This document shows positions 32,566-60,040 of a stretch of DNA of 64,000 nt, in pieces; within the stretch, counting starts at the first letter, position 1; every line of letters starts with the position of its first letter. The DNA comes from Aplysia californica (Eukaryota). The notes under the pieces are model-generated. The model was given only the letters and a program-made list of their open reading frames with translations, did no database searches and was not told where the DNA came from. Location of the stretch: contig NW_004797357.1 of NCBI RefSeq assembly GCF_000002075.1, forward strand, positions 358,901 through 422,900, read 5' to 3'. A program made the position numbers and the translations under genes.

Positions 32566-32679
32566 CTATTGGAACAGCAATACATCGGTAAATATTGCTT
32601 CCAGCATAACACAAAAGCCAACTAGATATAGAAACCAGGACTTTCCTTTCGGGAGATCACCTCTTCTTGTGAAAATTAT
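32566..32679 (-). CDS. TMEM243: TMEM243-like gene A, last coding exon: IIFTRRGDLPKGKSWFLYLVGFCVMLEAIFTDVLLFQ*
   Basis: Strong acceptor tcttttctttctttttttcAG; 114 nt, phase 0, to TAG. The RRGDL motif plus terminal TM helix matches the recalled YRQGDL motif of TMEM243/DUF2678. Confidence 0.85.
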   Translation of the reverse strand: MIFTRRGDLPKGKSWFLYLVGFCVMLEAIFTDVLLFQ

Positions 32680-32954
32680 CTGAAAAAAAGAAAGAAAAGA
32701 AAATGAATAAATTAAAAGTCACTGGATAAAAAACAAGCATCATGCATCTAATGTAAACATAATAAAAGAAAAGTTTATCCAAGAAGTACTGAGTTCAAGA
32801 GGAACTTTTGTACCAATGGGAATAAGTCTGGGTTAAAACGTTTAAAGAAAATTCTCAGAGTTGTATAGCATACCATATTGTATAGCCTCAAAGGTCTTAG
32901 AAAATAGATTTGAAATCAGTGATAACAACTTTGATCATCAATGAGATGACTACA

Positions 32955-33095
32955 TCACGACCTCAGTGCTTTCTTGTCCTATCTTCATTTTTAATAACAG
33001 TGAAAACAAAAAATAAAAAAGAGTGAGCTTAACAAAAAGTCACATTTTCAATGTTAAAAAAATGGAGATAAGACAAGAAAGCACCGAGGTCGTGA
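32955..33095. repeat. Fold-back inverted repeat (about 45-bp arms), MITE-like
   Basis: tcacgacctcagtgctttcttgtcctatcttcattttt ... aaaaatggagataagacaagaaagcaccgaggtcgtga. Confidence 0.85.
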
Positions 33096-34969
33096 CATGC
33101 GAGGGTGGAAGGTTAAACATAAAATAAGATTAAAGACACTATAAAACATGAGTAAAAAATTATCTTTACACATGGACGGAGATAAAAAAAGAGAGAGCTG
33201 AAGCTTGAAACCCAGTCCTAAATGGGTTGGGTGGTGCCTTCATTTTAAGCAAAGTGATTTGAGATGTATTGCCACGCGTCGCAGTCTAGCACAAAATATA
33301 TCTATAACAGCCGTGAGCTCCAACCCCAGAGGGTGGGAATCAGGTAGAAAAGGCAATAACACCTCTACAGCACAAAAAGCAAACACTTGACTTCCCTTTT
33401 CAATGGGACAGTGCACATAGGCCTACATGACACTGGAGTAACAATACTTTACCAGTTCAATAAAGACAAACTTGAGTAAAGAAAAGCACACAGACAAAAT
33501 ATTGCTCATTTACAGTAAAGGAAAAGAAAGATACAAGCGGAGAAATAAAAGAATGAGAGTAAAAAATTAGACTAATCCAGTGGCATCCTTCCATCTAATT
33601 TATTTGACAAACAACGACTAATGATAACACAATATTATTGTGAATATGTTCTCATTTCTCCATTTCCCATAAGTTCAGACATTATTTTACAACACAAAGC
33701 TGAAAAAGGCTGACTATGAGCAGGGGGGAAGATGTGCAGATAGGAGTACGATTTAGGGGCAGACATACAGACAATAAACAAAGGAGTGATCAATGATGAT
33801 CTTGAGAGTACATGATGAGTTCACAATATTCTATCTTATATTGTAAGGTTCGGAAAGAAAACACAACTAGAACTCCCAGATGGCAGCTTTCATTACTGGA
33901 TTTTATGCAAAAAAGTCAGATGGATGTCATGTGTAGCAGTCCACTTAAAACTACAGCTTTGAGAGTTTTTCAATTCAAGATTCTCTTCTTTCAGAACTCA
34001 GCACAAAGTATTAAGTAAACAATGAATGAGTGCAACAAAATATTCTTTCGTCCTTTTCAGGAGAAAATTAGTGACCAACCATTATGCATATAAATGGGGG
34101 CAAGCATAATTTTGGAAAAAAAAAGATAAAAATCCCACATGACAAGGATGCACAATCAACCAATCGACGGAATAGCTGATTGTTAGCCTGTCACAAGTTT
34201 ACTCTTCTCAACAGATGTTAGTGCCTGAATTGCAACCACACTGGTTCAGAAAAAAAATTGTGTGCAATGAATTTCTCGACATCACAGCATCAAAACTAGC
34301 TACCTACACTGGCTTTTCACCCTGCATGCAAGAGATATTAAATTGATTCTATAGGTGGAGACGTTGGTTTTATCAAGTCCGTCTTCCCAACGGGATGCTG
34401 TACTACAACAACTTGGGTTGGCCCTGACCAACAGGGTCAAAGCAGCACAGCCCATCCACTATATTAACAAAACAGGTTTGATGGGGGCTGAAAACTCTCA
34501 CAATCATGAATTTTAACAGCTAATGATACTTGATTTTCACTTAAGTATGATAAAGAGGCAAAATTAAGTGCAAAGCCTTCCTTAACATACAACTCCAGAA
34601 CTCTAGAGGGTTAGAAATGTTACAGAAAAAAAAACCCCAAACAGATGAGAATGGCTTTTGCACTTGATTGAAACTGAAAAGCATAGAGACAATACCATTT
34701 AGGTAAGGAAAAAACTCAAGACAGACGGACAGAAACAACAGAGAAACTGTAAAGGAGTATGATATACCAGTGATGCCCTCCGACCACCTTCCTAAGAGTG
34801 AAAAATTGTAAATTCAAGAAACTTTGCAAGTAGTCTGTAGTGTTACAAAACAGTACAGATTATAAATGCAGTAAACACAATTTCACCTGATCTTTAAGTT
34901 TTCGCAGAACAGCATAAAACCTGAATACAAGAATAAAAAATACAAGGAAGCGGGTAATGAAGATCTTAC

Positions 34970-35080
34970 CATCATCACTTCGATGACAACAAAGCCAATT
35001 AGACTGACCCCCTGGAGGAAATATGCACTCCCGTCGGTGTCTACGTCTAGTCCTCTGTACACAGAGAGTGACAATGTAAC
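34970..35080 (-). CDS. TMEM243: TMEM243-like gene A coding exon 3: VTLSLSVYRGLDVDTDGSAYFLQGVSLIGFVVIEVMM
   Basis: ttcttccttAG acceptor and ATG|GTAAGA donor; 111 nt, phase 0-0; begins VTL and contains the second TM segment. Confidence 0.85.
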
Positions 35081-57519: not shown

Positions 57520-57900
57520 ACCCCCCCCACCCGGGCTGTGCTACTGACTGAAGTGTCTTTAGGTCACTCCCAAAGGGGGGACATTAACCATGTTCTTATG
57601 CAAAGTAGAATTGTAATTGTAAATGGGCTGATTCATCAATGTCACGCTCATAACTGTGCCTGAACTTCAACCGGGAACTGCTGCTTTTTCTTTCCTCCTC
57701 CTTACTATCGTCATTTTTCCTCTGCTTCTTTTGTATGTTTGTCATACTCTTGTGACCCGTAATTTCCGGGGTGCCTTGATAGTCAAAGCAGACTTTGTGT
57801 TGTTGAAGCTAGAGAGGTGAGCAGAGTAAGTCTGATTCCTTGTAAGAACTTCTCTGTTGACATCCATCCCTTGGCGCTCATATAACCTTATGCAGTTGTG
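57520..57900 (-). repeat. Inverted copy of the 26440-26815 repeat
   Basis: Alignable by eye over about 350 bp. Confidence 0.8.
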
Positions 57901-58187
57901 AGCACCAGAAAACCTGTACCAAAAAAAAACAAAACCCCAAGATGGAAGTTTAAAAAAAATTATTGATCTTATTGCTTTGTGAGAGCAAAAAATTATGTTT
58001 TTCCTTTATCGTTTTTTGCACCAAAGGCTTTTCTGCTTTACTGCTCCATAGAAGGGATGATGTATGTCTAATATCACTCTTTAGGGTATTCTTCTTTAAT
58101 TGTGTTCTCTCCATGAAGAGAGACAGTCACTCTTCAAACTTTACAATATTTGTCAGTTGATATTATTATTTTCTTTTTTTTTTCCAG

Positions 58188-58213
58188 TCAGTGGTTTCGT
58201 CTGCATAGTTGTG
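58188..58213 (+). CDS. TMEM243: TMEM243-like gene B micro-exon 4: (I)SGFVCIVV
   Basis: T-tract plus ccAG, GTG|GTGAGT; 26 nt, phase 1-0, exactly restores the frame and completes TM2. Confidence 0.75.
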
Positions 58214-60013
58214 GTGAGTACTAAGCTGTTTTGTGTTGGAAATGAACTTGGACATTTGTTTTTTTGGTCCATCTTTAAAAGTACAGCCGAACTTGTTTAA
58301 GATGGCCACACATTGTTAAGGAGAAAAGTGGCCTTAGAAGACAGGTGGCCATCTTAGGCAGGACTAATCTAAATGAAGAAGACAAACCATTCCATTCCAA
58401 GGTCCCAACCGGAGGTGGTCAAAGGCTTATGACTGCTGTATGACTAATTGTAATGGGTTTTTTTTATGGAAAGGGGGGGGGGGGGGGAGAAGATTGTTGT
58501 TGTTATTTTTTTGTTGGTTAGTTTTTTAAATATTTTTTTTATTGGTTAGCTAATTAGCTTTTTAATAAACAAAATGAAATGTGTCAGACGAGGAAAACTG
58601 AGTGCCTACATATCATCTGATGGAGGACTGACTATAACAACAAGTGGTTGGATTATGATGGCTCGTCCAGTGTCAGGGGCCAATACTATAATTTATGACG
58701 AAATGTCAGGTGATGAGAGATTTGTGTGGCCATCTTAGTCAGGTATCCTTGGTTTGTTGACAAAATATGGTGGCCGCGGCCTTGTTGGAAAAGTGACTGT
58801 TTTACACAGTGAAAATATTTTGAAAAAATGCGGAGAGGGGGGAGGTGACAGTATTATGCACATGGCCGTCATGGCAGGTTCGACTGTACTACTTTTGTTG
58901 TAGACTGTTGATCTATTGTTGTTATTTTTGTCATTACTATTCACCATGTGAGGCTGTTTTTAAGATTATGAATGTAATCTGCCTTGGCATTTCCACATAG
59001 CCACAGAAATGTAAAGAATTTTTTTTTTCACGGAAATGGGCATTTGGTGACAAGGATGACTGAGAACTGTTTGTTTTAAAGCCACCTTGCTGTATCTTAA
59101 CAAATGGTCACTTTGCAGATTTTTACCTCGTTTTACTACTTTACTCCTTATTACATATAGCGGGTAATTTATTTTACTCTTTTCCTAAAGATTCACAATT
59201 TTTTAATATTGATAAAACTCAAGAATGTACTTGTACTTCAGACACATGAATAACATGACTTGACAGTAGATTTAATAAGCAGCACGGAAAGAATATTAGT
59301 TTGAGGCATTCTGTAGACAATGGTTCACTAATGGTATTTCTGTAATATTTTACAAGTGCACCTTAGCATGTATGAGTTCAACAGGCTTTTGACTAGACCT
59401 TCACCAAGGGTCTTGATGTTTATGATGATTAAGTTACCAGAACTGATTAACTGAGCAGTAGAGATACTGAGAGCATATCCTAGAAATAAAATGTCTACGT
59501 CTTGTAGTAGAAGAGGCTTACTGTACTACTGCAGTGTTATAGGTTTAAAATGTTGATTGGATAGTTTGAGCGTACATTAGTCAGATGTCAGATGGCCAGA
59601 AGCCTTTTGCTGGTTTTGTGTATAATCACATGTAGTTAAGCATAGTTTAGATGTGCTTTATTTTGGGTGAGGGTGTCTTTCAGAGAACCCTTTTACATTA
59701 ATTGTCAGAATGTTATAAAAATAATTTGGCTGTAACAAGAGCTGTAGTTTTGTAACTTTTTACTGAAACAAAGAAGACCTGGTGGTGAAAGATTTTGAAA
59801 TAGGAAAATATGTAAGTGTAGCTCATGTTAAACACTAAGGCGTACATTACGAAATGATTTCCACATTCTTACGATTTTGGTATGTGCATGCTAGACTGTA
59901 CAAGTTCATTCTTGATGCCCTTCTTTAGTTAAATAGATATGAACGAGTCAAACTCTGTGATAGTCATGTTTTTCTTTAAAAGTGTCTCTTTTTTTTCCAT
60001 TTTTTTTTTTCAG

Positions 60014-60040
60014 AATTGGTGGTACAAAACAGGAGACTTG
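60014..60040 (+). CDS. TMEM243: TMEM243-like gene B micro-exon 5: NWWYKTGDL
   Basis: T-tract plus cAG, TTG|GTAAGT; 27 nt, phase 0-0; WY-x-x-GDL family motif. Confidence 0.8.

Follow-up and report, generated by a model that had tools for sequence, protein, structure and literature searches.

Two genes, here called A and B, diverge from about 48.1–48.3 kb of the window, the 64,000-nucleotide stretch of Aplysia californica contig NW_004797357.1 that we analysed. The original prediction read them as spliced TMEM243/DUF2678-like paralogs, left by an old inverted duplication and perhaps serving one membrane complex. Are these genes real, how are they related to TMEM243, and do their products work together? 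All peptides quoted for A and B were found in their places. Genes A and B are both real and spliced, and the outermost contig ends, which differ from true start sites, lie at 48204 (A) and 48305 (B), in line with the predicted divergence. A pseudogene or artefact reading was ruled out by spliced contigs and identical RefSeq proteins. According to the run records, no run with these genes was registered as RNA; the contigs used were spliced nonetheless.

Gene A, on the minus strand, has four coding exons with GT-AG borders and phase 0 throughout, and encodes a protein of 136 aa. It diverges from 48.1–48.2 kb despite an ATG at 45185, because spliced contigs carry a non-coding first exon of ~48153–47956 (exon 1, 47956..48204). 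The 5′ extents of this exon were 48153, 48153, 48184 and 48204 in four runs; its main donor is at 47956, with alternative donors at 47904 and 48049. Exon 2 (45048..45204, coding 45185–45048) encodes the putative cytosolic N-tail, in which residues 4–9 form the acidic dileucine-type motif DKTGLL. Exon 3 (41944..41991, 48 nt, phase 0/0) encodes TM1, and exon 4 (34970..35080, 111 nt) the predicted outer loop and TM2 with Glu96. The last exon (31813..32679, coding part 32679–32566) holds the GDL loop and TM3 with Glu126, Thr130 and Asp131; the stop ends at 32566 and the 3′ UTR reaches at least 31813. In a single contig of run X4, the first and last exons were spaced exactly 316 nt apart (157+48+111), and the protein is identical, letter for letter, to an 'uncharacterized' A. 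californica RefSeq protein of 136 aa. Hence, the exon chain of A is not a product of chance.

Gene B, on the plus strand, has six exons encoding 149 aa. Exon 1 (48305..48395, with 5′ extents of 48305–48328 and the ATG at 48312) carries the putatively cytosolic YxxPhi motif YFEL, and exon 2 (55863..55910, 48 nt, phase 0/0) encodes TM1. Exon 3 (56482..56554, 73 nt), which ends in a phase-1 donor, contains the predicted outer loop, where an N-glycan sequon lies, followed by the first half of TM2 (Asn66). The second half of TM2 lies in a 26-nt microexon (exon 4, 58188..58213) and the WY..GDL loop in exon 5 (60014..60040, 27 nt), both identical in size in another animal, L043. The fifth intron spans 6,352 nt, of which 60041..64000 falls within the window. 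Exon 6 therefore lies just outside it (L011:2393-2584, or 66393-66584 in window-extended numbering), encoding TM3 (Gln104, Asp109) and a Ser/Thr/Pro-rich tail. Since the junction of exons 1 and 2 occurs as a loose contig end in three of the four runs examined, and the protein equals a 149-aa 'uncharacterized' A. californica RefSeq protein letter for letter, this chain is not due to chance either. Contigs thus support the splicing of A and the first junction of B. The later junctions of B were absent from reads; these rest on the RefSeq model and the matching exon sizes of L043.

As predicted, A and B are TMEM243/DUF2678-like proteins by profile, intron and fold-shape evidence, but both remain below the Pfam cut-off. 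The profile DUF2678 (PF10856) gave 15.7 bits for A (E 0.015) and 24.4 bits for B (E 3e-5), under the curated cut-off of 27.8 bits. DUF2678 was also the commonest Pfam match at E≤0.01 among relatives, found in 27 of the 61 A-types (best E 1.2e-6) and 29 of the 48 B-types (best E 5.7e-9). Alignment by hhalign gave 99.7% for A with B and, against five canonical-like rows, 99.1% (A) and 98.9% (B) over 103–106 columns. Atlas features, which serve as a lead only, linked A (0.90–0.97) and B (0.84–0.89) to DUF2678 clusters. None of five single exons matched Pfam, and neither did exon 6 of gene B alone, because such exons are too short. The window exons were missing from the 10 matches of a DUF2678 search of the same genome, and single-protein searches there found no additional close copy of A or B.

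A third, canonical TMEM243 gene lies elsewhere in the Aplysia genome, on another contig (C10) than the A/B pair, and its single exons scored 52.8 and 41.1 bits, above the cut-off. The original prediction had missed this gene, as well as the RefSeq annotation of A and B. A and B resemble TMEM243 (C7orf23, MM-TRAG; the latter name refers to mitochondrial taxol resistance) in their three predicted helices, a GDL loop before helix 3, and the places and phases of three introns. These phase-0 introns, shared by A, B and the C10 gene, lie before TM1, after TM1 and 6 residues before GDL; the last of them had been predicted for A and B, as had their 48-nt phase-0 TM1 exon, which measures 51 nt in the C10 gene. 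In contrast to canonical TMEM243, A and B share a K-x-W-F...[EQ]-x-I-x-T-D helix 3 and form two separate subfamilies; B is further set apart by two additional introns and its long outer tail. The motif WYRQGDL, put forward as a mark of the family, does not hold here: it is present exactly in the C10 copy, but in 0/61 A-types and only 1/48 B-types. The looser WY..GDL occurred in 0/61 and 14/48, and GDL in 34/61 and 15/48, respectively. Human TMEM243 is poorly understood, and its relatives A and B, both labelled 'uncharacterized' in RefSeq, are undescribed. Our literature searches found no account of the two genes, LOC101858333 and LOC101858699, whose ids could be listed in supplements outside the search, and searches on TMEM243 and its aliases found nothing on where these proteins reside or with which partners they act. 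DUF2678 hardly appears in the literature found under those aliases, and a review, in the passages concerned with the orphan TMEM243, gives only links to paclitaxel resistance (PMC12841848).

The duplication is indeed old, and far older than the original prediction implied. A and B head two subfamilies (93/90 and 97/93), each with sponge and cnidarian members, while the C10 gene clusters apart from both with canonical-like rows (98/98). One tree was built from the 96 of 121 rows that passed a coverage filter, from which 14 partial or intron-read-through rows were then dropped; orthology was tested against the canonical-like rows, with no human sequence among them. A recent duplication, with A and B of Aplysia as one clade, was rejected (AU test, p 3e-39), as was a mollusc-specific duplication (p 2e-97); a sponge A+B clade was rejected more weakly (p 0.02). 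It is therefore likely that the two kinds split near the origin of animals. Vertebrates, arthropods and nematodes accounted for 0/37 named species, in a look-up that covered 27 of the 113 representatives.

The two subfamilies differ in features that bear on where they might reside. By the positive-inside rule, A and B would both have their N-terminus inside and their C-terminus outside. Counted as one row per 50% cluster, and against shuffles that ignore relatedness, a wide N-terminal acidic dileucine occurred in 21/36 A rows (shuffle mean 2.4, max 8) and 2/32 B rows, and the strict form in 9/36 (shuffle mean 0.8) and 0/32; the enrichment in A lay above all 1000 shuffles. The A motif is therefore likely to be a sorting signal, which would act by binding adaptors, as far as sequence can tell. 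Conversely, YxxPhi motifs occurred in 20/32 B rows (shuffle mean 7.3, max 14) and 3/36 A rows. A also has Tyr at a position within the YxxPhi of B, and this B motif may be structural. Predicted outer tails of at least 15 aa were found in 47/48 B-types, with 43% Ser/Thr/Pro, and in 0/61 A-types; outer-side N-glycan sequons in 37/48 and 1/61. These sequons and the Ser/Thr/Pro-rich tail predict that B is glycosylated.

Predicted structures agree with three helices per protein. AlphaFold2 placed them at 44-74, 79-104 and 110-135 in A and at 26-53, 59-83 and 88-114 in B (mean pLDDT 76-77, pTM 0.54-0.55), and hydropathy showed three peaks in each. A prediction of the complex A(30-136)+B(12-120) scored 0.08 against a mark of 0.34 and, made without custom alignments or controls, is evidence neither way. 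For B, the fold search gave no PDB match at E≤0.001, and a SWEET homologue only at E 7.1. For A, it gave tied helical bundles with a best Z of 10.2, too low to carry meaning for folds of this type; an ER translocon chain among them (9i78_6; Z 9.4, rmsd 2.5, 94 aligned) lies within the helical-bundle background.

How could these features fit together? We tentatively favour, at somewhat below an even chance, a co-transcribed endolysosomal heteromer of the MFSD1-GLMP kind, whose location and partnership we infer. A single bidirectional promoter would provide a matched supply of A and B, and the two proteins, with three predicted helices each, would assemble in endosome- or lysosome-type membranes. 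The N-terminal acidic dileucine of A would steer the complex by adaptor binding, while the predicted glycosylated lumenal tail of B would shield it. Most speculatively, polar helix residues (Glu96, Glu126 and Asp131 of A; Asn66, Gln104 and Asp109 of B) might, at the interface of the subunits, line a path for solutes or a surface that binds a client.

The first step of this proposal concerns the ~100 bp between the outermost 5′ ends (48205..48304), the putative core of a bidirectional promoter. This gap contains a TAGATC-type short repeat at 48251-48278 and an E-box, TCACATGA, at 48297. The 5′ ends fall within the ~1 kb limit for bidirectional pairs, and transcripts of both genes were present in three of the four contig runs examined, although contigs cannot rank their levels. 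A shared promoter, which had been suggested, is thus possible, and we consider it likely that the gap is one promoter. A MiT/TFE-type E-box was considered as a shared element; it occurs in the window and in L041 but is missing in L043 (p ~0.06 each, not significant). Expression was not uniform, because run X14 contained the first exon of A without exon 1 of B, and three poly-A read sets from one study had zero depth over the last exon of A, in a comparison that left most of B uncovered.

The arrangement recurs in other animals. Among nine animals with both genes identified, three had them head-to-head in DNA, three had adjacent or near-adjacent accessions, and three apparently had them apart. 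Besides the Aplysia window, the head-to-head layout was directly seen in two further animals: L043, where the ATGs are 556 bp apart and all six B exons are present, and L041, where they are 642 bp apart and B is represented by its first exon only. The pair also occurs back to back in what is likely a clam-type (bivalve-like) animal. L044 resembles a second copy of L043. Of six metagenome loci, two reach the start of A, and B sits there in both; the other four are uninformative on linkage (L039 is intronless, L040 is short, and L042 and L044 lack the start of A). Accessions are adjacent or near-adjacent in the snails Elysia marginata, Lymnaea and Biomphalaria, in which orientation was unread. 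The genes appear apart in Bulinus, Octopus sinensis and Anneissia, where contigs differ in length and identifiers are distant; hence, linkage is not obligatory. In tblastx comparisons of L041-L044 with the window and a 60 kb flank, the A and B exons alone matched, and no synteny was found beyond the pair. The conserved layout and the greater age of the duplication strengthen the original idea.

An alternative explanation, possible though on the unlikely side, might be that A and B are locked neighbours with separate jobs: an ancient inverted duplication left promoters that overlap within ~100 bp and are hard to separate, and each protein acts alone or as a homo-oligomer, possibly both in endosomes. 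Transposons occupy the introns on both flanks while the 5′ gap remains short, as would be expected of a locked promoter regardless of protein function. Octopus, Anneissia and perhaps Bulinus keep both genes although the linkage is gone, which fits this explanation, as does A without B in X14; moreover, with a candidate sorting motif on each protein, neither would need the other to travel. Yet, the subfamily features are complementary rather than redundant, with a naked A and a glycosylation-rich B.

Dileucine and YxxPhi motifs also serve endocytosis and Golgi sorting, and a tail rich in Ser/Thr/Pro is a typical feature of surface proteins with O-glycans. Possibly, then, the heteromer resides in the Golgi or at the cell surface, with motifs that drive recycling and a mucin-like B tail that, outside the cell, would act in sensing or as a stalk for adhesion. 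Mouse TMEM243 is among the cell-surface membrane proteins listed, and left untested, in passages of PMC12041282; however, the A motif at residues 3-9 lies where MFSD1 has its tested lysosomal signal, at residues 7-12 (PMC6819133), and we regard a surface or Golgi heteromer as decidedly unlikely. A small ER or mitochondrial complex (a chaperone or insertase subunit, or an MPC-like heterodimeric carrier) with coincidental sorting-like motifs is very improbable: the alias MM-TRAG of human TMEM243, the heterodimeric carrier MPC1/MPC2 (PMC12280002) and the background-level match to 9i78_6 would suit it, whereas the conserved outer sequons and mucin-like tail of B suggest that this protein travels the secretory pathway, and the dileucine enrichment exceeds every shuffle.

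Returning to the endolysosomal heteromer, a bolder and unlikely version is that each protein supplies one half of an undescribed solute carrier or channel of the lysosome. Its three-helix paralogs would be as old as animals, one subunit would bear the glycan shield, and the pair would have stayed head-to-head for >500 million years in molluscs, while vertebrates may have lost it and retained TMEM243 only. If true, this would suggest the endolysosomal system as the home of orphan human TMEM243, which is linked to taxane resistance. More generally, two further animal-wide subfamilies, with their subfamily-specific polar residues, opposite predicted glycosylation and candidate sorting signals, provide a basis for testable ideas on where the TMEM243 family works and whether it does so in pairs.

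Known glycosylated accessory subunits are single-pass and unrelated to their partners, and B differs in both respects. In MFSD1-GLMP, the unglycosylated polytopic MFSD1 has an N-terminal dileucine signal and depends on a glycosylated partner, and ClC-7-OSTM1 shows the same split in glycosylation, according to passages of PMC6819133. A and B appear, from their predicted features, to divide along the same line; in contrast, they are three-helix paralogs known from sequence features, whereas MFSD1 is a large transporter of 12 helices. Subunits of MPC and SemiSWEET have three-helix size, and the likeness to them is one of design only, two small paralogous membrane proteins forming a unit. MPC1 and MPC2 are two small paired subunits of one carrier (PMC12280002); MPC is mitochondrial, and our fold searches gave A and B only tied, generic helical-bundle matches. 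The closest parallel in gene arrangement is COL4A1/COL4A2, ancient head-to-head paralogs across metazoans, with exceptions in protostomes, whose bidirectional promoter serves products that co-assemble (passages of PMC12141075). This likeness is of arrangement only, as the collagens are unrelated, secreted matrix proteins with proven co-assembly, whereas that of A and B would be a prediction. Head-to-head in snails and in a bivalve-like animal, the pair offers a case beside collagen IV for why such pairs stay linked.

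Our results show that genes A and B of the window are genuine genes that had been annotated before. Gene A (minus strand) encodes 136 aa in four coding exons, while gene B (plus strand) encodes 149 aa, with five exons within the window and the sixth 2.4 kb past its end (L011:2393-2584). The peptides quoted in the original prediction were all found at their given positions, and their splice sites have GT-AG borders and the phases as given. It had also stated that neither gene appears in the ORF track. This is true, but splicing is the only reason, and both genes are already in RefSeq: single-exon searches recovered the full proteins, LOC101858333 (A) and LOC101858699 (B). 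These two Aplysia californica proteins carry the label uncharacterized and are placed on a 1,698,676-base contig, equal in size to that of the window.

An intron of gene A carries a broken non-LTR retrotransposon (35790-39745, minus strand), whose endonuclease, reverse transcriptase and RNase H fragments are spread over several frames. The fifth intron of gene B contains an element of about 4.2 kb (61798 to extended position 65996, L011:1996), likely a DNA transposon, with 284-bp inverted repeats at its ends (89% identity) and a decayed ORF, one piece of which had no Pfam match.

Missing junction reads for the exon chains had been named as a possible refutation. For gene A, a single 1,431-nt contig of run X4 spans first to last exon: letters 1-198 correspond to 48153-47956, letters 515-1381 to 32679-31813, and the 316 letters in between to the three middle exons (157+48+111). 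Introns are skipped by contigs of X4, X5 and X13, runs classed as RNA by guess. The non-coding first exon of gene A was covered in all four runs compared and uses three alternative GT donors (47904, 47956 and 48049, minus strand), at two of which loose ends in X5 match the next exon. Exon 1 of gene B continues into exon 2 in three of the four runs (X4, X13, X5); this was not found in X14. Depth over the last exon of gene A was zero in three raw-read poly-A runs from a single study, and therefore expression is not uniform.

The outermost 5' ends, contig ends that merely bound the true starts, lie at 48204 (A) and 48305 (B), with 100 bp between them. The ATG of gene B is 7 bases from its outermost 5' end seen, in a AAGATGGCG context (48308-48317) that resembles the YY1/TISU-type element typical of genes with very short leaders. 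Repeats of TAGATCTA are concentrated near the presumed shared promoter (46001-50000 and 52001-54000), with 19 copies in 46-50 kb versus 0-1 in most 2-kb bins, and one inside the 100-bp gap.

Against DUF2678, the TMEM243 family profile, A and B scored 15.7 and 24.4 bits, below the Pfam cut-off of 27.8; across their relatives, DUF2678 was still the most frequent match (27/61 A-types, 29/48 B-types). A and B share 29% identity across 120 columns. Profile comparison gave 99.7% for A against B, and about 99% for either one against five canonical-like rows. The same genome contains a canonical TMEM243 with the exact WYRQGDL motif on another contig (G000:C10:630978-622411, minus strand, loci L015-L018), which passes the cut-off and has four coding exons (60, 51 and 105 nt plus the last). 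Three phase-0 intron positions are common to all three genes: before the first helix (TM1), after it, and six residues before GDL; the TM1 exon measures 51 nt in the canonical gene versus 48 nt in A and B. AlphaFold2 predicted three long helices in each of A and B. On this profile, intron and predicted-helix evidence, A and B are therefore TMEM243 paralogs, not orthologues, even though the formal Pfam test failed.

Searching 1.84 billion representatives with a profile yielded 113 matches. A tree of 82 rows, built from few columns by a quick search, separated into groups of 6 canonical-like, 33 B-type and 43 A-type rows. In a second, carefully built tree of 31 rows, most of them named, support was 93/90 for the A group, 97/93 for the B group and 98/98 for the canonical group. 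Named members of each subfamily include a sponge (Oscarella for A, Sycon for B), a crinoid, a nemertean and molluscs, the latter being numerous among A-types. Trichoplax, a coral and a hemichordate are further named sources of A-types, and two anemones and a bryozoan of B-types. AU tests rejected a duplication confined to Aplysia or to molluscs, and weakly a sponge-only pairing of A and B. Hence, the duplication is old, as originally proposed: the split predates molluscs, and taxon spread and AU tests place it before cnidarians and probably before sponges. Since it lacks an outside root, the tree does not establish A and B as closest sister groups; they have a helix-3 pattern in common that is missing from canonical rows. 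Two B-type copies of Watersipora (P0093, P0164) belong to the same 90% cluster and come from contigs of equal size.

Synteny in other genomes had been suggested as a check. Among six metagenome loci with an A-type exon, the start of A was reached in genomic DNA at two, and at each of these a B-type gene diverges from it. At L043, gene B is complete with six exons and has the microexons known from Aplysia (48, 76, 26 and 27 nt versus 48, 73, 26 and 27 in Aplysia), and the ATG-ATG distance is 556 bp. This animal is likely a bivalve, because its B shares 71% identity with that of Dreissena, with which it grouped at 100/99; the gastropod-bivalve split is over 500 million years old. At L041, whose A groups with no named mollusc, the first B exon begins 642 bp from the ATG of A with the same phase-0 donor, and the contig stops before exon 2. 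A word similar to AAGATGGCG occurs in the L043 gap (p about 0.01-0.02 each for the window and L043, uncorrected), and none in the L041 gap. L041 also has a gene, presumably exportin-6-like, whose exons (8800-11700, minus strand) lie tail-to-tail with A; one piece searched had no Pfam match, and 124 kb of Aplysia DNA compared had no match. In three snails, identifiers place A and B side by side with orientation not visible: Elysia marginata (ElyMa_002919400/500, contigs of equal size), Biomphalaria (XP_055875638.1/639.1) and, as neighbours, Lymnaea (CAL1534227.1/229.1, contigs of equal size). Octopus sinensis and Anneissia appear to keep the two genes apart, and so does Bulinus, whose B model is missing the first exons and whose assembly may be broken there. 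Overall, A and B are linked in 6 of 9 animals.

The enrichment of basic residues ahead of helix 1, and again in the loop with GDL preceding helix 3, suggests that the N-tail and this loop are cytosolic and that the C-terminus would be outside or lumenal. A-types stop directly after helix 3, with a median of 1 residue beyond it; the tail of B-types has a median length of 36.5 residues and consists of Ser/Thr/Pro to 43%. An outer sequon occurs in 1/61 A-types versus 37/48 B-types. Acidic dileucine-type and YxxPhi motifs bind sorting adaptors. With one row per 50% cluster, and shuffles that ignore kinship among rows, a wide acidic dileucine-type motif is present in 21/36 A N-tails (shuffle mean 2.4), its strict form in 9/36 (0.8), and YxxPhi in 20/32 B N-tails (7.3); neither motif was enriched in the N-tails of the other subfamily. 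The A-type motif is present from sponge to crinoid. Three of five canonical-like proteins (P0107, P0110, P0118; alignment A6) have a word resembling [DE]xxPL[LF] ahead of helix 1, possibly a sorting motif in that branch too.

Polar residues within the helices are conserved by subfamily: Glu96 (37/61), Glu126 (47/61), Thr130 (48/61) and Asp131 (43/61) in A-types, and Asn66 (47/48), Ser70 (41/48), Gln104 (47/48) and Asp109 (42/48) in B-types. By itself, a protein of three helices is probably not large enough to form a path, and together with this small size the residues suggest an oligomer. Possibly, A and B are co-transcribed and would then assemble as an endolysosomal heteromer, a reading that we favour tentatively. 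We consider it somewhat less likely that A and B are linked but independent proteins. A heteromer at the cell surface or in the Golgi seems improbable, and an ER or mitochondrial complex is more doubtful still.

Listings of openly accessible papers under the name of the family, its aliases and six gene identifiers gave no account of the A and B subfamilies or their linkage. TMEM243 has been linked with taxane resistance (PMC12841848) and was a screen hit not among the confirmed ones (PMC12041282). A and B represent an ancient, previously undescribed branch of the TMEM243 family, made up of two subfamilies whose head-to-head linkage is conserved and whose features complement each other. The gene arrangement resembles COL4A1/COL4A2, which is head-to-head across metazoans with exceptions (PMC12141075). 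The putative endolysosomal A-B heteromer would resemble MFSD1-GLMP in its division of labour: the tested sorting signal of MFSD1 has the same form and place as the motif of A, and MFSD1 and ClC-7 are unglycosylated proteins, each stabilised by a glycosylated partner (PMC6819133). Yet, the A-B pair is a member of neither system.
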